A stretch of 18,382 nt of DNA from Pseudomonadota bacterium (GCA_918234285.1 CAKJXZ020000006.1:1-18382); one strand, 5' to 3'; positions 8,230 to 16,068 are shown, counted from the stretch's first letter. Numbers and translations are program-made. Notes: a model not told the origin generated them from the sequence alone.

Positions 8230-8766
8230 TTATGCTTTATCCTCGGCAAGTTGGCAATAGTGACGGAAATAAAAATATTCCGAAACGCTGATGAGCCCGT
8301 AAATAACGACATAAGTGCCGGCGGTTAACACCAGCGCCCATTCGCCGAATTGCTGCGAAGTCAAAATAAAATAAGCCAACACCACGCCGATAATACCGCT
8401 GGCCATTGACCATCCCCACGGCATGGCGATTTTACGTGCTTCAAAGCTGCCGGAAATCTGCATAACTCCCGATGCCAGAATCCACAACGCGAAAAATATC
8501 GGCAAAGTTTCGGCGCTCAAGCTGAGATTGGTCATAAAAATCAGTCCCATAAATACATCAAAAAGGCCGACAACCATATACCAGCCGGAATATTCGGACA
8601 GCGAAAAAGTGATGTAGCCGCAACCGAGCATAAACAACATCAAGCCCAGATAAAAAGCCATACCTAAAAGCGAAACGGTCGGATGTGCCCAAATCAATAT
8701 ACCGAGAACCACCATAATCAGGCCGGAAATTAAATGCCATATACTGCATCTTTTATCTTGTTTCAT
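8230..8766 (-). CDS. HdeD/DUF308-like multi-pass membrane protein
   Basis: About six hydrophobic helices in repeated units (W..ISGLIMVVLGILIWAHP; W..VVGLFDVFMGLIF; WSMASGIIGVVLAYFI). Start set at ATG 8766 because AAGGAGGA lies at 8778-8771. Confidence 0.85.
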   Translation of the reverse strand: MKQDKRCSIWHLISGLIMVVLGILIWAHPTVSLLGMAFYLGLMLFMLGCGYITFSLSEYSGWYMVVGLFDVFMGLIFMTNLSLSAETLPIFFALWILASGVMQISGSFEARKIAMPWGWSMASGIIGVVLAYFILTSQQFGEWALVLTAGTYVVIYGLISVSEYFYFRHYCQLAEDKA

Positions 8767-8859
8767 AAAATCCTCCTTTGCTAACGGCATAAAAATATTA
8801 TTTGCGCGGATTTTTTCAAGACGACCGATCAATATAAAAAAAATCGTTCTTAATAAAAA

Positions 8860-8892
8860 TGTCATACAAATTTAAGAAAAATGTGATATACT
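8860..8892 (+). promoter_or_regulatory. Putative promoter of array gene A: degenerate direct-repeat box plus extended -10
   Basis: TGTCAT-ACAAA-TTTAAG (8860-8876; 14/17 identical to the gene C box TGTAAC-ACAAA-TTTAAC), 10 nt spacer, then TATACT preceded by TG-n. Confidence 0.45.
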
Positions 8893-8913
8893 GAGACAAA
8901 GGGAATGAAAAAT

Positions 8914-10363
8914 ATGGCATAGTTTACTGTTCCGGATTTCGGAGATATCAATGAATTCAAGGCATGGGTTGCTAAGTTGGACGAGCGAGCCATTCAGTCT
9001 TGGACGGCCGAAAACTGGGTGGAAATGTATCATAAAATCGAGGGATTTCGCGGCTATTTTGGCAACGGCAGCGAAATGGTCAAACATTGTCCGGAGGAGT
9101 TTATCAAGTTATACAGCAACTATCGTATGGAGCCGGAGCAGTTAAAATATATTACCCAGCTGGCTCATCAGGCCGGCGAACAGTTAGCACAAGAAGAACT
9201 TGATGCTTCCAAATTGGCAATCAGAACCAGAAAGTATTATCCCGTATCGGTTCCGGAATTTAACAGTACCGCAGATTTTAAGGCCTGGGTGGGCAGTTTG
9301 GACGAGCGCGCCATTCAACAATGGAATATGGACGATTGGATTGCCGTATATAAGCAAGTCGAGCCTATTCGTCGTCGGCCGGATATGGAGCAGATAAAAA
9401 AATCGACGATAAGATTTTGGCGCAGTTCAGAGAAGAATTGAAAGCCGCACAAGCATTGGACCCGGTTGACGCCGATATATATAGAGATGCTGTTTCGACT
9501 ATTAGTGTAAAGATGAGTTTGAAAAGTTGTATAAAAACAGCACCATCAATCCGCAAAAGATGTATTATATAAGACAATATATGCATCAGTTTGAAGATAT
9601 GGGTGACGGGCTGTTGCGAAGATATGAAACCGGCAGAACTTCATTTATAACGGAGATGACACAAAAAATCGATGATATTACAGCAACCGGTACAAAATAT
9701 GCTCCGGAGCATCGGGTACACTCAACGGTTTATGTCGGAGAAATGCGAGGCGGATGGCACGGTCGGGCTGCGGCATTAACAGATGGTCGTGCCGCATTGG
9801 AGATGAACAGTCGCTCGCTGGTTGATGGCGCCATCGGTACGGCGGCCAGTGTGGCCATAGATGCCGGACTTGCCGGTCGCGATATTTATAAAGAGGTTAA
9901 AAAAGCCGATGACGTTACCAAACAGCAAGTTAAAAAAGATAAGGAAAACGCCAAAAAATACGGCGAGAAAAAACAAAAACAGGTAGCCAGAGCCTCGGCA
10001 AAAGCCAAATCCAAAACGCCGCAAAAACAGGTAACCGCCGCCAAAATGAAAACCAATGCCGTCAACGCCAATAAATATCAAAAACAGATGGAAGACATTA
10101 TTAATAGGCTGAATAAGGCCAACGGCAAGGTCAAGACCATGGATGCGGCCAAAACCGCCGCCACACTGTATCAGAAATACGGCGATAATGCTTATGCGTT
10201 GTTGCAAGAGGCCGTACAAAGTCCGGGCTCGTATCAAAAGCTGGGTGACGGTAAGCTGAAAACTTCACGCGACGTGATTCAACACCTGTGTCAAATGCCG
10301 AATACCAAACAGAATCAGCAAGTTGTACAGAGTATCATTCAGAACCGTGCCAAAAGTAAGTAG
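8914..10363 (+). pseudogene. Array gene A: disrupted gene of about 483 aa with two N-terminal repeats, a Gly/Ala-rich segment and the shared C-terminal domain
   Basis: ATG 8914, in-frame TAG at 8920-8922, then continuous frame into ORF 8977-9441. The internal repeat continues in a different frame at 9506 (CKDEFEKLYKN... versus HCPEEFIKLYSN...). A third frame is open from 9354 across the gap. Length 1450 nt + 2 nt = 484 codons, consistent with two single-base losses. Confidence 0.75.
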
Positions 10364-12076
10364 TTAGCGCGAACGGCGGTTTCTGGTGGTAGCCATGGCA
10401 ACGACATTGCTCTTTTGCTGTTCGTCATCAATTTCGCAAAGTCTTTGAATAATCTGCCGCGAACTGGACAGCAATTTGCCGTTATTATCGCGCAAATCTA
10501 ATTTTTTAGCCATTGTGGTCGGCGCCATCATAACTTTTGCCAATACTTTGGAAGCATTTTCGCCATATTGTGCGCTCAGAGTTTCAATAGTTGCCTCAAC
10601 ATCGAGTTGGCGTGATTTGCCGTTAGCTTTGTTCAGGTTGTTCAGCATAGAGCGCATTCTGGCCTTGTCTTTATCCGACACGTTACCGCTGTTATCGGTT
10701 TGGCGCGGTTTATCCTTAGCCGGAACTGGCGCAGTTTGCTGCGGTGTTTTGGCTTTATTTTCCGACTGCGGCTGCGTCCGTGTTTGCGGATGTTCTTGCG
10801 CCACTCGAGAGTGCGGTTGTTCCGGCGCTGCACGGGATTGTGAGTGTTCACGTCCGGCTTCGGCTTCTCTCACTTTTTGCTCAATATATTGTCCGAGCTC
10901 GGAGTAGAAGCTTCCGGTATAGTGAATACCGTCGCCGCCCTTACTGCCGAATACTTTAGAGTTAGACTGGCTGCGAACATATGATTGGGTATCAACTACC
11001 TTAACGTCATCGGACAGGTATTGCTGCATATAGCGGTTAAAATCATCCACTCCTTTATTGACCTTGGCCGCATCCGAGCGATTGGTACTGACCGGGTTGA
11101 CCGTGGTAAAATAGACCTGTTTGCCTTGTTTTTTCATTTCTGCAGCGAATTCGTTCATCTGTGCGGCATATTCCTTGGCCATTTTTTCAATATTTTTATT
11201 GCTGTGAACCGCACCGTATACGTCATTAAAACCGAGATTTACCACTACACAATCGCAATCTTTGGCATCTTGTTTGATGTCGTTCAGGTGTTGTTTGAAC
11301 CAAGCAAAACCCTTGCCGCTTTGTGCAAACCAACGATCGCCGGACTTATCGGTTTTTCTTTTCAGCTTCATGTCGTTTTCTCCGGCCATGCCGACCGTGC
11401 GGCTGTCACCGACGTTGAGAATCTTGCCGGAACTTTCGCTTGCCCGAGATTGAGAATCTTGATTCTGGGATTTTGCACCGGCATTGGCCTTTCTGGCTTT
11501 ATCTTCTTCTTTTTTCGATTTTTTGGAAGCATTGGCCTTATCCGTTGCCATCACTTTTTTGGTGGTGTTGAATTCAAACTCGCCCGTTGCCATGCAAGCG
11601 GCATTGTCACGGGCGCGTCTGCCCACATCTCTGGCATATTTCGAGCGGAGTATTTCCTTGGCGGCGGTTGTATAATCCTCATTTTCCATTGCCGTCAGCA
11701 TTTTATTGAATTTCTTGGTTCTCGGAATACCCATATTATAGCACATATCAATCAAGACAAATTGCCGTTCGTCATCGAGCTTTTCAAGCAGCGGGCCTAA
11801 TCTCTTATCGGCCTTTACTCCCTCAATGACTTTATTTAAATCGTGCTGCAGTAACTTTTGCGCTTCGGCTTCGGTAATTCCGTTATCAAGACTGCTTTTA
11901 TTGAGAATTTTGCATACTTCTTTTTTGGCACGGGCGATTGCTGCCGGAGAACTACCGTAGCGCTCCAGATTATAGCCGTAACCGATGCTTAAATATCCGG
12001 CCGGGCAACGGCGTTGTGTGCTTAAAAAGCCCTCGCTGCGTTTAATGCGATTTAAATATTCCTGATTATCCAACAT
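10364..12076 (-). CDS. Array gene B: T4-type (GH24) lysozyme + SGNH/GDSL hydrolase + shared C-terminal domain, 570 aa
   Basis: E15-X8-C24-X5-S30-IGYG and LIDMCYNMG...FNKMLTAM...SKYARDVGRRA resemble T4 lysozyme; SGNH blocks GDS225, SGKG, GFN284D, D382GIH385; AAGGAG RBS; no signal peptide. Confidence 0.88.
   Translation of the reverse strand: MLDNQEYLNRIKRSEGFLSTQRRCPAGYLSIGYGYNLERYGSSPAAIARAKKEVCKILNKSSLDNGITEAEAQKLLQHDLNKVIEGVKADKRLGPLLEKLDDERQFVLIDMCYNMGIPRTKKFNKMLTAMENEDYTTAAKEILRSKYARDVGRRARDNAACMATGEFEFNTTKKVMATDKANASKKSKKEEDKARKANAGAKSQNQDSQSRASESSGKILNVGDSRTVGMAGENDMKLKRKTDKSGDRWFAQSGKGFAWFKQHLNDIKQDAKDCDCVVVNLGFNDVYGAVHSNKNIEKMAKEYAAQMNEFAAEMKKQGKQVYFTTVNPVSTNRSDAAKVNKGVDDFNRYMQQYLSDDVKVVDTQSYVRSQSNSKVFGSKGGDGIHYTGSFYSELGQYIEQKVREAEAGREHSQSRAAPEQPHSRVAQEHPQTRTQPQSENKAKTPQQTAPVPAKDKPRQTDNSGNVSDKDKARMRSMLNNLNKANGKSRQLDVEATIETLSAQYGENASKVLAKVMMAPTTMAKKLDLRDNNGKLLSSSRQIIQRLCEIDDEQQKSNVVAMATTRNRRSR
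10769..10849 (-). repeat. Three degenerate 27-nt (9-aa) tandem repeats in the gene B linker
   Basis: EHSQSRAAP / EQPHSRVAQ / EHPQTRTQP, each unit beginning GAA-CA. Confidence 0.55.
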
Positions 12077-12113
12077 CGGTTTTCTCCTTAATAAAAGTTA
12101 CCTTATATATATT

Positions 12114-12169
12114 ATATTACAATGATTTATAACAAAAAACAATTACGAATTTGTTAAATTTATGTTACA
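12114..12169 (-). promoter_or_regulatory. Conserved array promoter module upstream of gene B
   Basis: Minus strand: TG-TAACA-taaatt-TAACA-N9-TTGTTT-N17-TAATAT. Confidence 0.75.
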
Positions 12170-12170
12170 G

Positions 12171-12198
12171 AAATACCGCGGAAATTTCCGCGGTATTT
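12171..12198. terminator. Perfect 28-bp palindrome, probable terminator of gene C
   Basis: AAATACCGCGGAAA-TTTCCGCGGTATTT, 25 bp downstream of the gene C stop. Confidence 0.75.
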
Positions 12199-12223
12199 GA
12201 GATGTTGTATATTAACGTTCGGA

Positions 12224-13288
12224 CTAGTTCATACCTCCGCGACCGCGGCGACGTGCGGCCACCATAGCCAAGGCATTGTCGCGTTCCTGTTCGTTTTCCG
12301 GTTGGCTGAGTCTTTGAATAATTTGACGTGAACTGGCGAGTAATTTGCCGTCTTTGTCACGCAAATTCATCTTCTTAGCCACCGAAGTCGGAGACATCAT
12401 GGCTTTTGTTAAGATTTTGGATGCTTCACTGCCGTATTGTGCAGTCAAGTCATCAATTGTTTTATCTATGTCAATCTTCTTGTTTTTGCCGTTAGCCTTA
12501 TTCATATTGTTCAACATTGAGCGCATTCTGGCCACATCTTTATCGGTGGCATTTCCGGTTTTGGCCGGCGCGGTAGTTTGTTTTGGAGCCGGAGCGGCAG
12601 CACGCGGAGCGGCGGTCTGTTTTTGGACCTTGTCATCTTTGGCTTTGGTTTGTGCCACCTGGCGCGTTTCGGCTTCCTTTTTAGCTCCGTATTCTCTGGC
12701 TTTTTCGGTATCGTCTTTAACCTGCGCTTTGGTAACATCTTGCCCTTTGACTCTGGTCGGGCGCTTATATAAAGATTCATTGAATTTAGGATCATCATCC
12801 GACCATTCACCGGTACGCATTAATTCCGCATTCTTACGAGCTCTTTGTCCGGTCTGTTTGGCATACTTGGAATTCAGCATTTCTTTCGAGGCTGTTTCAT
12901 AATCACCTTCTCTTAAAGCACCAAGCATCTTTTTGAATTGTGCCAAATTATCGGCACCCATGGTGTAACACATATCCACCATAACATATTGGCTGGCCGG
13001 ATCGAGTTCTTTCCACCACGGAAACCGTTCATCCAATGCATCATAAGTGGTTTTTAAATCTGCGCGGCAGATTTTATCAGCGTCGGCGGTGGTCAATTTA
13101 TCGCCTTTATTAATGTCCTTTCCGGTCATTGATTTAACCCACTGCGGACCACGGCCGCTGGTATCTAAGTTATGTCCGTAGCCTACACAATAACCTCTAC
13201 CCGAAGGGTCACGCTTTTTGGTGGCGGTAAAACCCTCACCTTGGGCAACACGTCTTACCCATTCATCTTCCGTAGCCTTATCCACCAT
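12224..13288 (-). CDS. Array gene C: T4-type (GH24) lysozyme + shared C-terminal domain, 354 aa
   Basis: E18-X8-D27 then YCVGYGHNL; LDPASQYVMVDMCYTMG...FKKMLGAL...SKYAKQTGQRARKNAELMRTG resembles the T4 lysozyme C-lobe. Start set at ATG 13288 from AAGGAG at 13301-13296; no signal peptide. Confidence 0.9.
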   Translation of the reverse strand: MVDKATEDEWVRRVAQGEGFTATKKRDPSGRGYCVGYGHNLDTSGRGPQWVKSMTGKDINKGDKLTTADADKICRADLKTTYDALDERFPWWKELDPASQYVMVDMCYTMGADNLAQFKKMLGALREGDYETASKEMLNSKYAKQTGQRARKNAELMRTGEWSDDDPKFNESLYKRPTRVKGQDVTKAQVKDDTEKAREYGAKKEAETRQVAQTKAKDDKVQKQTAAPRAAAPAPKQTTAPAKTGNATDKDVARMRSMLNNMNKANGKNKKIDIDKTIDDLTAQYGSEASKILTKAMMSPTSVAKKMNLRDKDGKLLASSRQIIQRLSQPENEQERDNALAMVAARRRGRGGMN

Positions 13289-13324
13289 CGTTTTTCTCCT
13301 TAAAAACAATAATCCATTTTCTTA

Positions 13325-13380
13325 ATGGTACCATAATCCGCACGCAAAAACAATATCTAAATTGTTAAATTTGTGTTACA
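13325..13380 (-). promoter_or_regulatory. Conserved array promoter module upstream of gene C
   Basis: Minus strand: TG-TAACA-caaatt-TAACA-N9-TTGTTT-N17-TACCAT with an extended -10 TG. Confidence 0.78.
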
Positions 13381-13409
13381 AAAAAAGCCGCGGAATATTA
13401 CCACGGCTT
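13380..13409 (-). terminator. Intrinsic terminator of gene D
   Basis: Minus strand AAGCCGTGG-TAATATT-CCGCGGCTT followed by a T-tract, 24 bp after the gene D stop. Confidence 0.75.
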
Positions 13410-13433
13410 GAAGATATACGACTTTTGCGGTTA

Positions 13434-14957
13434 TTACATACCGCCGCGACTGCGCTTTTTGGACGAGGCAATAGCCAGAATTTGCTTATTTTGCTCCTCG
13501 TTGTCGATTATGCACAGCTGTTCCAGAACCCCACGCGAAGACCTGATTAATCTGCCGTTTTCATCGCGTAAATTCAAACGTTGCGAAAATTGCGACGGAG
13601 ACATCATTATCTTGGTTAAAACTTTAGAGGCATCAGTACCGTAGAGTTCGGTCAAGCGGTCGATGGTTGCTTCGATATCAACCGGATTTTTTCTGCTGAC
13701 TTTGTTCAAATTAGTCAGCATTGACTTCATTCTGGCCCTATCTCTGGCCGAAATTTCGTCATTGCGAACAACCTTTTTCCCGGTTGATACTGCTGTCTGT
13801 TGCTCGGCTTGAACGGCAGAAGATTCGCGCTGCTCGTTGGTAGCCGTCGTAACATGGAATATTGAAAGGCGTCTTTCCTGGCGAGAAGATTCTTCTCCGG
13901 CATTTTCGGCATCAGTTCGCATCACCGCCGGAGTTGCGCTCGGAACGTTGGCGTTTTTAATATAAGAATCGGCATAATTGTCAATCATTTTTCTCAATGA
14001 GGTACTTCCCGTACGCAGACCGAATAAGTGATTTTCCGCCTTTTGCAGATTGTCAATTTCCGTTGTCGCCTTGGCTCTTTGTTGTGCGACTTTGTTTTCA
14101 AGTTCGCTGATTTGCTGAGGTGTCAAATCTTTGGTGGCGGCAGACAATTCGTCGATTTCATGATTCAGTTGATCCCCCATCCATGTATACATGCGGCCGA
14201 CGGTAAAACGACCTTCCGTCTTGACTTTTTTATTTTTTACTGTTCTTGTAACCATCGGCGGATACTGAGTATTGGCATCGATAACTTGGAGTTTTGTTCG
14301 GTTATTGGCCTGGATTACGTAGTTTTTCAGTTTGCCGTTCTCATCATAGTTTACGGCCACGATTACTTCGGCATGTTTACCGGAGTTTGAGCTGTTGCTG
14401 TCGCGGGATATTTGGTCTCCCGGACCCACTTTTCCCTGTTCTATCAGATTCCATAAGGTTTTTTTGCCTTTTCCGGATATTTTGAGATCGTTAGGGAAAG
14501 GGGCCAAATTAGCGGCACTAAGGTTATCCGCATCGCATTTTACCAGACTTTCAACACCCATTCTTTCGCAAATGGCAGCTTCCACCGCACAAGCGGAGAC
14601 GGCGCAGCAATATGATCCACTGTAACGAGAAGCGTTGCCGACGATATCACCTTGGGCAATCTTTCGATAGGCAAGACTGTCGCTCACCATTCCCTTCTTT
14701 TTGTTGAAAATATCTCTGTTCATATTTCCGTTGCATCGCACGGCCGCATCAAAAGCGGTAGTTCCCTCAGAAAGGCAGATGCTTTCATATTGCTGTTGGC
14801 GTAATTGCCGATATTGTGACAATAAGGCATTACGATATTCTTCGGTGGAGGCGAAATCCTCACGTTTCAACGGAGGAAAATTCTCATCCAGTTCTTGTTT
14901 CCTTCTGGTAGCGACGTCATCGGTCAGATCTTTCGCGTCGTTTGCTTTATTTCCCAT
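13434..14957 (-). CDS. Array gene D: probable CHAP/NlpC-P60-like Cys-His hydrolase + shared C-terminal domain, 507 aa
   Basis: YC117C118AVSACAV helix, VGPGDQI, SGKH195AEVIVAV strand and YVIQ216ANN occur in the order typical of CHAP domains; GGAG RBS; no signal peptide. The gene itself is secure; the domain call is moderate. Confidence 0.7.
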   Translation of the reverse strand: MGNKANDAKDLTDDVATRRKQELDENFPPLKREDFASTEEYRNALLSQYRQLRQQQYESICLSEGTTAFDAAVRCNGNMNRDIFNKKKGMVSDSLAYRKIAQGDIVGNASRYSGSYCCAVSACAVEAAICERMGVESLVKCDADNLSAANLAPFPNDLKISGKGKKTLWNLIEQGKVGPGDQISRDSNSSNSGKHAEVIVAVNYDENGKLKNYVIQANNRTKLQVIDANTQYPPMVTRTVKNKKVKTEGRFTVGRMYTWMGDQLNHEIDELSAATKDLTPQQISELENKVAQQRAKATTEIDNLQKAENHLFGLRTGSTSLRKMIDNYADSYIKNANVPSATPAVMRTDAENAGEESSRQERRLSIFHVTTATNEQRESSAVQAEQQTAVSTGKKVVRNDEISARDRARMKSMLTNLNKVSRKNPVDIEATIDRLTELYGTDASKVLTKIMMSPSQFSQRLNLRDENGRLIRSSRGVLEQLCIIDNEEQNKQILAIASSKKRSRGGM

Positions 14958-15005
14958 GTTTTTTCTCCGTATTTTCAGCGATGTATTTTTTATATTCTAC
15001 ATTAC

Positions 15006-15059
15006 ATCCTAACACAAATTGCGCCCAAAAACAACATATAATGTGTTACATTTATGTTA
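15006..15059 (-). promoter_or_regulatory. Conserved array promoter module upstream of gene D
   Basis: Minus strand: TAACA-taaatg-TAACA-N9-TTGTTT-N17-TAGGAT with an extended -10 TG. Confidence 0.75.
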
Positions 15060-15105
15060 TATTTTGCACTGCTCTTATTTTTTTTGAAAAATGTTTAAAA
15101 AAGTG

Positions 15106-15133
15106 TTGACAGACATTATTTTTGTGATAACAT
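15106..15133 (+). promoter_or_regulatory. Putative sigma70 promoter of the str operon
   Basis: TTGACA (15106-15111)-N16-TAACAT with TG-n extension and an AT-rich upstream tract. Confidence 0.7.
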
Positions 15134-15140
15134 CGCGCAC

Positions 15141-15178
15141 ACTGATTGCTGAGCGTTTTTTAATGCTCGGCGGTTAGT
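15141..15178 (+). other. 17-bp stem-loop in the rpsL 5' leader
   Basis: ACTGATTGCTGAGCGTT-TTTT-AATGCTCGGCGGTTAGT pairs fully on the plus strand using five G-U pairs. Confidence 0.6.
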
Positions 15179-15214
15179 TTTGTGTAATTAATTTAATAAC
15201 TTAAGGAAAATGTG

Positions 15215-16068
<854 letters not shown>

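Follow-up and report, generated by a model that had tools for sequence, protein, structure and literature searches.

What switches on three neighbouring genes that carry the same promoter-like module, and which other genes answer to that switch, are the questions raised by a stretch of 18,382 nucleotides (nt) from a member of the Pseudomonadota (GCA_918234285.1, CAKJXZ020000006.1:1-18382), referred to here as the window. On its minus strand, genes B, C and D, whose products end in a common C-terminal domain (CTD), are each preceded by TAACA-N6-TAACA-N9-TTGTTT-N17-TAnnAT (12114-12167, 13325-13378 and 15006-15059). A preliminary description of the window had taken these modules for promoters and operators kept by selection and served by one activator of the OmpR/PhoB family, possibly CtrA-like. 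The organism is an alphaproteobacterium of an uncultured lineage from gut and rumen, a family of small genomes; its own genome (G000; 71 contigs, given C numbers; 2,005,265 bases; 43% G+C) was compared with those of relatives, given the other G numbers. All promoters and operators described below are predicted from sequence; a search for RNA sequencing runs that contain the stretch found none, and three metatranscriptome contig sets and one raw-read run yielded no usable match to it.

The module proves to be one form of a wider operator, as judged by comparison of sites, and the architecture, conservation, genome-wide distribution and gene content of this operator are shown below. It also lies before the pilin operon of a type IV secretion system (T4SS), at a promoter of the T4SS cluster, before gene A and before about ten orphan genes, so B, C and D would belong to a single T4SS-plus-cargo regulon. 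We lean, with some reserve, toward an activator-dependent regulon read through an OmpR/PhoB-family operator, for which a PhoB-like protein is the best candidate regulator.

The Module Before Genes B, C and D

Reading of the minus strand confirmed the module at all three places. With two mismatches or fewer, TAACA-N6-TAACA-N9-TTGTTT has 3 matches in the window, against a mean of 0.01 in 200 dinucleotide shuffles (0 of the 200 reached 3), which is above background; across all 71 contigs, the full pattern and the core pattern each occur only at the B, C and D positions. The gene start lies 52–86 nt downstream of each module.

An extended −10 element, with TGn directly before TAnnnT, is present in C (TGG-TACCAT) and D (TGT-TAGGAT). 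The TAATAT of B, 32 nt past the second TAACA box (box 2), is preceded by TTG but lacks the one-base gap of an extended −10, and a second candidate, TGTTATAAA, lies within the N17 spacer, where TGT-TATAAA (12126-12131, minus strand) forms an extended −10 located 20 nt past box 2. G001, a relative, has TGC-TATATA in the same place. Given this extra element, TAATAT may not be the sole −10 of B.

The three genes look monocistronic, as had been proposed, and the hairpins that follow C and D (Table 1) agree with this; a consensus terminator scan includes the hairpin after D only, that after C being unlisted. No Rfam family reached its gathering score within 8700-15300, where structured RNA was sought in the leaders. 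Two other readings of the boxes were rejected by eye: box 1 as the −35 element of an alternative sigma factor of the extracytoplasmic function (ECF) type, for which there is no conserved −10-like element 16–17 nt on in B, C or D, and a third half-site, the 11 nt that follow box 2 being unlike the repeat in all three.

A Wider Operator and Its Distribution in the Genome

Operator sites were gathered by a rule that took TAACA as box 1, T(A/C)A(C/T)A 11 bases on as box 2, and an extended −10 at 21 or 32 nt. The resulting 24 distinct sites describe the operator TGTAACA-nAAA-TkT(A/C)A(C/T)A, a pair of 7-bp direct repeats with a period of 11 bp. Positions that the rule left free are conserved as well: box 1 is preceded by T (23/24) and G (17/24), and the spacer favours A (23/24), A (21/24), A (19/24) and T (19/24), so the conserved unit is longer than the boxes first noticed and extends to TGTAACA-nAAA-TkTAACA.

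A scan of the genome with a position weight matrix (PWM), which the preliminary description had proposed, gave 16 matches of at least 18 bits, against 1 for the reversed matrix. Besides the sites of B, C and D, these include a match (C17:20307) before the virB2-like T4SS pilin gene (C17:20395) and one directly after virB4, ahead of the next gene of the T4SS cluster (C17:24745); others precede genes for products of 535–1419 aa on C3 (four), C58, C24, C30, C43, C63 and C53. A weaker site (14.8 bits) stands before gene A, which also encodes a CTD. When 11 orphan genes of the regulon were scanned, no Pfam family was found in any, apart from a sub-threshold, low-complexity match to Trypan_PARP in the C63 protein (20.4 bits, cut-off 100).

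Searches with simple patterns gave a similar distribution. The degenerate form TGT(A/C)A(C/T)A-N4-T(G/T)T(A/C)A(C/T)A has 9 matches in the genome, of which 8 fall between genes, and its reversed control has none. Of 11 occurrences of TAACA-N6-TAACA, 10 are intergenic; for other separations of the boxes the figures are 1/11 (N4), 5/7 (N5), 0/7 (N7) and 3/5 (N8), and for the reversed pattern 3/11. The notion of three co-regulated genes has thus held as far as the shared operator goes and given way as to extent, the regulon being much wider and including the T4SS pilin operon and about ten orphans. A single activator of co-regulated monocistronic genes is supported by the pattern of sites, and one regulator probably switches on the secretion apparatus and its cargo together.

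Promoter Geometry and the Sense of Regulation

Among 24 sites of the genome that score at least 14.5 bits, 16 have TGnTAnnn(T/A) within 60 nt, and the distance from box 2 to this extended −10 is always 20 (3 sites), 21 (8), 32 (4) or 41 (1) nt; with the hexamer set at −12 to −7, the centre of the 16-bp core falls at about −41.5, −52.5 or −61.5. The difference between the 21-nt and 32-nt classes is exactly one repeat period. B, C and D fall in the 32-nt class, where the weak −35 element TTGTTT occupies the gap. The virB2 promoter has the 32-nt distance in G000, G001, G054, G007, G009, G046 and G045, and the 21-nt distance in G005, G008 and G062. TGn precedes the −10 in 15 of the 17 module promoters of the genus, as read from the listed sequences.

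From this geometry we infer activation rather than repression. A repressor site that holds the genes of both T4SS and cargo off in the absence of a signal would be an improbable alternative, even though the 20/21-nt class gives it some purchase: the site there spans −49 to −34, and an extended −10 needs no −35, so occupancy could block RNA polymerase. PhoB and VicR are described as dual regulators whose effect is set by the position of the site (PMC10294691, PMC4168254). At B, C, D, virB2 and the C43 gene, however, the site lies wholly upstream of the −35 position, which is typical for activators, as is the 41-nt distance from the −10 at the C63 gene; the −35 hexamers are weak (TTGTTT) or absent, and strict helical phasing (21 vs. 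32 nt) is what activators need.

Conservation in the Genus and Beyond

In G001 the four genes A–D are kept in the same order, and the module stands before the orthologs of B, C and D. Alignment of the six promoters of G000 and G001 shows no change in the boxes, in TTGTTT(TT) or in TAnnAT; divergence, with insertions and deletions, has affected the N9 and N17 spacers and the leaders of the C and D orthologs. Across 50 genomes of the genus, TAACA-N6-TAACA-N9-TTG has 23 matches, found in 11 genomes, and its reversal has 6; among the 23 distinct matches, 17 carry TAnnnT exactly 17 nt past the TTG hexamer, which the search did not ask for, and the 6 that lack it agree with the background rate. In G046 and G054 some of the 17 stand before CTD genes that resemble B, C and D; others precede genes whose products have arginine-rich C-termini or signal peptides (G006, G013, G045, G046 and G054). 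The module of the D-like gene of G046 has TCACA as box 2, and the boxes of the D operator are kept at the orthologous sites of G001, G054 and G046. Five close relatives have 9–17 matches each to the degenerate operator, against 2–4 for the control. By these comparisons the B/C/D regulon is conserved in the genus, and the earlier argument for selection on the boxes is borne out, their spacing being kept before orthologs of three further species in which spacers and 5′ leaders have changed.

These data also bear on whether the likeness of the three modules is a trace of recent tandem duplication (CTD, terminator, promoter and 5′ end together), with no regulatory meaning. The CTDs of B, C and D are indeed paralogous (48–61% identity), and each module directly follows a CTD and a hairpin, so that the whole block could have been copied. 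Spacers and leaders have nevertheless diverged in four species around unchanged boxes, the operator also stands before non-homologous genes on other contigs, including virB2 and orphans without a Pfam family, and the distances from operator to −10 are quantised; duplication without regulatory meaning is, on balance, very improbable.

Across the order, 118 of 201 genomes contain TGTAACA-N5-kTAACA (187 matches, against about 37 for the reversed control). G204, from another genus of the family, has 19 exact matches, nearly all of them TGTAACAAAA(A/C/G)TTTAACA, far above the other genomes searched, and G174 and G141, from another genus, have three tandem TGTAACA repeats, 11 bp apart, with an oxidoreductase-like gene downstream of them. 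In distant members of the genus under study the operator lies inverted about 135 nt before the virB2 start codon, with box 1 sometimes TGTCATA or TGTCACA.

Candidate Regulators

Direct repeats of 11 bp with an A/T-rich 4-bp linker are the signature of the OmpR/PhoB family, and the proposal of an activator from this family fits the direct repeat upstream of a weak −35. Four proteins of the genome contain an OmpR-family DNA-binding domain: a CtrA equivalog, a PhoB-like protein (C1:48203-48901), an OmpR-like protein whose gene adjoins that of an EnvZ-like kinase (C63:29545-31599), and an atypical protein with a degenerate receiver (C28:65533-66141). The other response regulators are a CckA-like hybrid kinase and two proteins with N-termini that look NarL/FixJ-like by eye; the remaining kinases are a PhoR-like one (C71:8632-10050) and one other.

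The PhoB-like protein ranks first among these candidates, as a tentative choice with somewhat less than an even chance of being the regulator. The PHO box consists of two direct-repeat units of 11 nt, each with 7 conserved and 4 less conserved bases (PMC4415409), and this architecture is found at the 24 distinct operator sites, which read T-k-T-A-A-C-A / n-A-A-A / T-k-T-(A/C)-A-(C/T)-A. No canonical Pho box TGTCA-N6-TGTCA occurs anywhere in the genome, and the operator family provides its only sites of PHO-box architecture. The DNA-binding domain of the PhoB-like protein has E. coli PhoB as its best matches in the PDB (1GXP and 3T72; E 2e-23), the stretch RTVDVHIRRLRKAL is identical, and so is the recognition helix. 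Chromatin immunoprecipitation sequencing (ChIP-seq) of E. coli PhoB gave the half-sites TGTAAC, TGTAAT, TGTCAT, TGTCAC, TTTCAT and ATTCAC, within sites such as TGTAACAGAAATATCACA, TGTAATAAAAGCGTAAAC, TTTCATAAATCTGTCATA and TGTAACCCGTATGTAACA (PMC10294691); as far as this list goes, PhoB accepts the half-sites seen in the operator, those of B, C and D being TGTAACA or TTTAACA, and box 2 being TGTCATA or TGTCACA in the sites of gene A, C53 and C58. Control of phosphate genes is not apparent: PhoU, PstS and PstB were not found in the genome, which is rated 100% complete, and a Pit-type phosphate transporter gene (C12:80660-81598), like the virD4 operon, has no PWM match of at least 6 bits upstream.

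CtrA, binding the boxes as a near-consensus site and tying the regulon to a phase of the cell cycle, is an unlikely regulator of this operator. The CtrA box is 5′-TTAA-N7-TTAA(C)-3′ (PMC6847485), and the boxes of B and C (GTAA-N7-TTAAC) are one mismatch from TTAA-N7-TTAAC, as had been pointed out. A CtrA equivalog is encoded (NF045991, 400.4 bits, cut-off 350), as is the CckA-like hybrid kinase alongside it; the canonical box occurs 24 times in the genome, 15 times between genes, and precedes rho, a type IVb pilin gene, ftsA and others; and an operator spread over the whole family is what a universal regulator such as CtrA would produce. On the other side, the boxes of D (ATAA-N7-GTAAC) are two mismatches away, and the box-2 variants TCACA, TCATA and TAATA at virB2 and other promoters, kept across species, break the TTAA core; the corresponding second halves in the regulon (TTCAC, TTCAT, GTAAT, GTCAC and GTCAT) lie off the CtrA consensus. 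The canonical sites form a separate set that lacks the conserved CA after TAA and the AAAT spacer, and their intergenic enrichment is modest, the N6 spacing also giving 15 intergenic sites. Because the core is broken while the CA and the spacer are conserved, CtrA is not the best candidate: what remains of the earlier suggestion is the resemblance at B and C and the presence of the protein, and the analysis yielded no sign of a link to any life-cycle phase. In the intergenic region common to virB2 and a divergent five-gene operon there is, 86 nt before the latter, a box of canonical CtrA type (TTAAC-N6-TTAAC; C17:20052-20067), so CtrA may touch the T4SS locus through a separate site.

Binding by the OmpR-like protein (with the EnvZ-like kinase) or by the atypical winged-helix protein is a minor possibility when the two are taken together, a little less remote than CtrA. 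Any of the four OmpR-family domains would bind direct repeats of 10–11 bp; BvrR, a member of this family, binds the virB1 promoter of Brucella (PMC9491525), and control of virB genes by BvrR or VirG in other Alphaproteobacteria offers a parallel. The atypical regulator is, moreover, a core gene of the genus (47/50). Against both stand the lack of a specific sequence argument in their favour and the lack of an operator near their genes.

Evidence Against the Preferred Reading and a Proposed Mechanism

Several observations count against a PhoB-like activator of a T4SS-plus-cargo regulon. Ten promoters from four species agree throughout at 17 of the 20 box positions and at 6 of the 34 others, a comparison that is partly circular because the search pattern fixed 13 of those 20; the PWM, and with it some of the conservation counts, is circular too, the sites having been collected by a rule that fixed the boxes and the 21- and 32-nt distances. 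Repression too is conceivable from a site centred at −41.5. On TIGR02154, the PhoB-like protein falls slightly short of the cut-off (287.7 bits against 296.2). The dominant half-site of the operator is TGTAACA/TTTAACA, with the G of TGT in just 17 of 24 sites in box 1 and 9 of 24 in box 2; the core of the E. coli PHO box is CTGTCAT (PMC4415409). There is no sign of autoregulation, no PWM match of at least 6 bits being found upstream of the genes for the PhoB-like, PhoR-like, OmpR-like and atypical proteins; upstream of ctrA there are two weak matches (12.2 and 11.8 bits) with the wrong half-site spacing. The PhoB-like regulator is present in 197 of 201 genomes of the order and the atypical one in 47 of 50 of the genus, and since the candidates are near-universal, presence and absence cannot single out one of them. 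Finally, at 30 loci from other genera the operator precedes varied genes, none virB2-like, and has no fixed distance to an extended −10. The link of the operator to the T4SS may be special to this genus; from its place before unrelated genes elsewhere, the regulator is probably old and general in the family, and it may have acquired the T4SS and cargo genes within the genus.

With these points in the balance, a PhoB-like activator still gives the best account of the sites. Each module would be a sigma-70 promoter dependent on an activator. Its 18-bp operator, in which two direct repeats of 7 bp succeed each other at 11 bp on one face of the helix, would lie 32 nt upstream of the extended −10 (centre about −52.5), adjoining the weak −35 TTGTTT; in the 20/21-nt class (centre about −41.5) the operator would replace the −35, and the 32- and 41-nt classes would also be used. 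A head-to-tail dimer of a winged-helix response regulator of the OmpR/PhoB family would bind the operator and recruit RNA polymerase. The PhoB-like regulator and the PhoR-like kinase might drive the regulon, having no Pst/PhoU system to serve in this lineage.

A bolder version, which we regard as speculative, is that in this family the PhoR/PhoB pair, without Pst and PhoU, has been rewired into the master switch of a chromosomal T4SS and its cargo. The operator would then be a PHO-box derivative, TGTAACA-N4-TkTAACA, set in helical register at −41.5, −52.5 or −61.5, and the cargo would include cell-wall and lipid hydrolases with a previously undescribed C-terminal delivery domain of about 100 residues.

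The Secretion System and Its Putative Cargo

VirB4 and VirD4 are encoded in the genome. Within the genus, a virB2-like gene is present in 48 of 50 genomes and VirD4 in 48 of 50, the VirD4 proteins being 83–99% identical; most of these genomes have two to four virB2-like pilin paralogs in tandem (C17:20395-22023 in G000). No TssC/VipB of a type VI secretion system was found in the genome under study.

B, C, D and the orphans are candidate substrates of the T4SS, since they have the operator in common with virB2, the CTD has a basic tail, a core VirB/VirD4 system is present, and no N-terminal signal peptide is evident in them (by eye only). The lysozymes might instead help the secretion machine to cross the cell wall, as described for a Brucella autolysin that helps the T4SS through it (PMC8334348). 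That the CTD proteins are several and include a lipase domain fits cargo better than passage through the wall.

The CTD itself is a domain of about 100 residues with a basic tail that ends B, C and D alike. In the last 100 or so residues of these proteins no Pfam family was found at E 0.01 or better, and the domain occurs in 16 of 50 genomes of the genus. A repeat-rich protein of about 900 aa encoded elsewhere in the genome (C14:70907-73660, minus strand) contains, internally, a weak copy of the CTD (E 3e-10). About 200 nt upstream of its gene, within the end of the preceding one, is an operator of 22.8 bits that has no extended −10 at the usual distance.

Features of the Locus

The locus lies in ordinary chromosome, flanked by uvrB, lepB, rnc and era on one side and by rpsL, rpsG and fusA on the other. 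Gene A is interrupted: its third codon is an in-frame TAG, an N-terminal segment is duplicated, the reading frame changes, and it has no counterpart to residues ~190–637 of the 812-aa form in G001, where the operator of the ortholog scores 22.5 bits; it may be a decaying gene or an assembly fault. A divergent promoter-like site for rpsL (TTGACA-N16-TAACAT with TG; 15106..15133, plus strand), outside the regulon, stands back to back with the D module in their common intergenic region, about 45 nt from the D operator, an arrangement that is kept in G001, G046 and G054.

Table 1. Coordinates of the genes, predicted operators, core promoters and hairpins of the locus within the window.
Feature	Coordinates	Strand	Description
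Operator of gene A (weak)	8851..8892	+	TAATA-AAAATG-TCATA; extended −10 TGA-TATACT at 8887-8892, 20 nt past box 2; 14.8 bits
Gene A (convergent)	8914..10363	+	Interrupted in G000; CTD at 10067-10360
Gene B	10364..12076	-	570 aa; phage-type lysozyme PF00959, GDSL lipase/esterase PF00657 and CTD (Pfam scan)
B module	12167..12114	-	TAACA-TAAATT-TAACA-AATTCGTAA-TTGTTT-N17-TAATAT
B core promoter	12114..12142	-	TTGTTT 12137-12142, N17, TAATAT 12114-12119; 32 nt from box 2
Operator of B	12152..12169	-	TGTAACA-TAAA-TTTAACA; PWM 29.3 bits
Terminator-like hairpin after C	12171..12198	-	Ends at B operator; −18.6 kcal/mol, z −7.3
Gene C	12224..13288	-	354 aa; phage-type lysozyme PF00959 and CTD (Pfam scan)
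C module	13378..13325	-	TAACA-CAAATT-TAACA-ATTTAGATA-TTGTTT-N17-TACCAT
C core promoter	13325..13353	-	TTGTTT 13348-13353, N17, TGG-TACCAT 13325-13330; 32 nt from box 2
Operator of C	13363..13380	-	TGTAACA-CAAA-TTTAACA; PWM 28.4 bits
Terminator hairpin after D	13385..13409	-	T-run into C operator; −15.0 kcal/mol, z −5.0; also in consensus terminator scan
Gene D	13434..14957	-	507 aa; N-terminal part without Pfam family, C-terminal CTD (Pfam scan)
D module	15059..15006	-	TAACA-TAAATG-TAACA-CATTATATG-TTGTTT-N17-TAGGAT
D core promoter	15006..15034	-	TTGTTT 15029-15034, 17-nt spacer, extended −10 TGT-TAGGAT 15006-15011; box 2 to −10, 32 nt
Operator of D	15044..15061	-	TATAACA-TAAA-TGTAACA; boxes TAACA at 15055-15059 and 15044-15048; PWM 25.9 bits

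Significance and Comparison With Known Systems

The literature searched for this gut and rumen alphaproteobacterial lineage together with T4SS gave no description of its regulation or secretion substrates, and a search on the half-site with response regulators gave no description of this system. For such a lineage an operator of fixed geometry would be useful in itself, as it lists the probable T4SS regulon (9–17 promoters per close-relative genome, mostly before genes without a recognisable domain), and its link from three envelope-degrading enzymes to a secretion machine makes an antibacterial or host-directed T4SS testable. If a PhoB-like protein is the regulator, a conserved two-component system would have kept its DNA-reading head while its regulon was replaced; if PhoB has been rewired, the operator would be a sequence tag by which all the effectors of an uncultured lineage could be found.

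The closest likeness is to the PHO box of E. coli and other Proteobacteria, which is also built from two 11-nt units of 7 conserved and 4 A/T-rich bases. The spectrum of half-sites in the operator matches that of the E. coli PhoB sites found by ChIP-seq, and PhoB is reported to keep strict spacing to core promoter elements (PMC10294691). The operator differs in its half-site, mainly TGTAACA/TTTAACA where that of E. coli is CTGTCAT, and in its predicted targets, which are T4SS, orphan and cell-wall-hydrolase genes rather than genes of phosphate uptake; moreover, the B, C and D promoters keep a weak −35 of their own, which the site, 32 nt away from the −10, does not replace, and binding here is a prediction.

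WalR and WalK form a system of Gram-positive bacteria, and WalR regulons generally include cell-wall hydrolase genes, a likeness to B and C, which are lysozyme-domain proteins. The WalR/VicR box of Firmicutes, TGTWAH-N5-TGTWAH, refined to TGTWAHA-N4-TGTWAHA, resembles the PhoB consensus, and VicR binds and positively regulates the autolysin gene atlA (PMC4168254). This box occurs exactly at C3:151128-151145 (TGTAACA-AAAA-TGTAACA), with one mismatch (TTTAAC) in B and C, and exactly at many sites of relatives (TGTAAC-AAAAA-TGTAAC). The best score on the YycF model is 210.9 bits against a cut-off of 340, so the genome has no WalR ortholog, and the relation is, by this comparison, a likeness of site and not membership. 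The CtrA box shares the 11-bp direct repeat with the operator and differs in the second halves TCACA/TCATA/TAATA and in the conserved CA and spacer of the regulon.

As regards gene content, PmrAB of Legionella activates about 40 effector genes, PmrA and CpxR being winged helix-turn-helix regulators (PMC6989116). PmrA and the BvrR of Brucella resemble the putative system in that a winged-helix regulator presides over secretion-system genes, and in the case of PmrA also over scattered effector genes; they differ in the bacteria, motifs and regulators concerned, the Legionella T4SS is of a different type, and in the present genome both the regulator and secretion are predicted. The X-T4SS of the Xanthomonadales delivers envelope-attacking enzymes with a common C-terminal domain, XVIPCD (PMC8740702, PMC6536674), to which the lysozyme and lipase proteins with one CTD, accompanied by a VirB/VirD4 system, are similar. 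They are unlike it in that the CTD matches no Pfam family at E 0.01 or better and no adjacent immunity genes are evident. The regulon thus appears, from its sites and gene content, to carry a regulatory scheme of a known kind, response-regulator control of a T4SS and its effectors through a site built like the PHO and WalR boxes, into a lineage hitherto unstudied.

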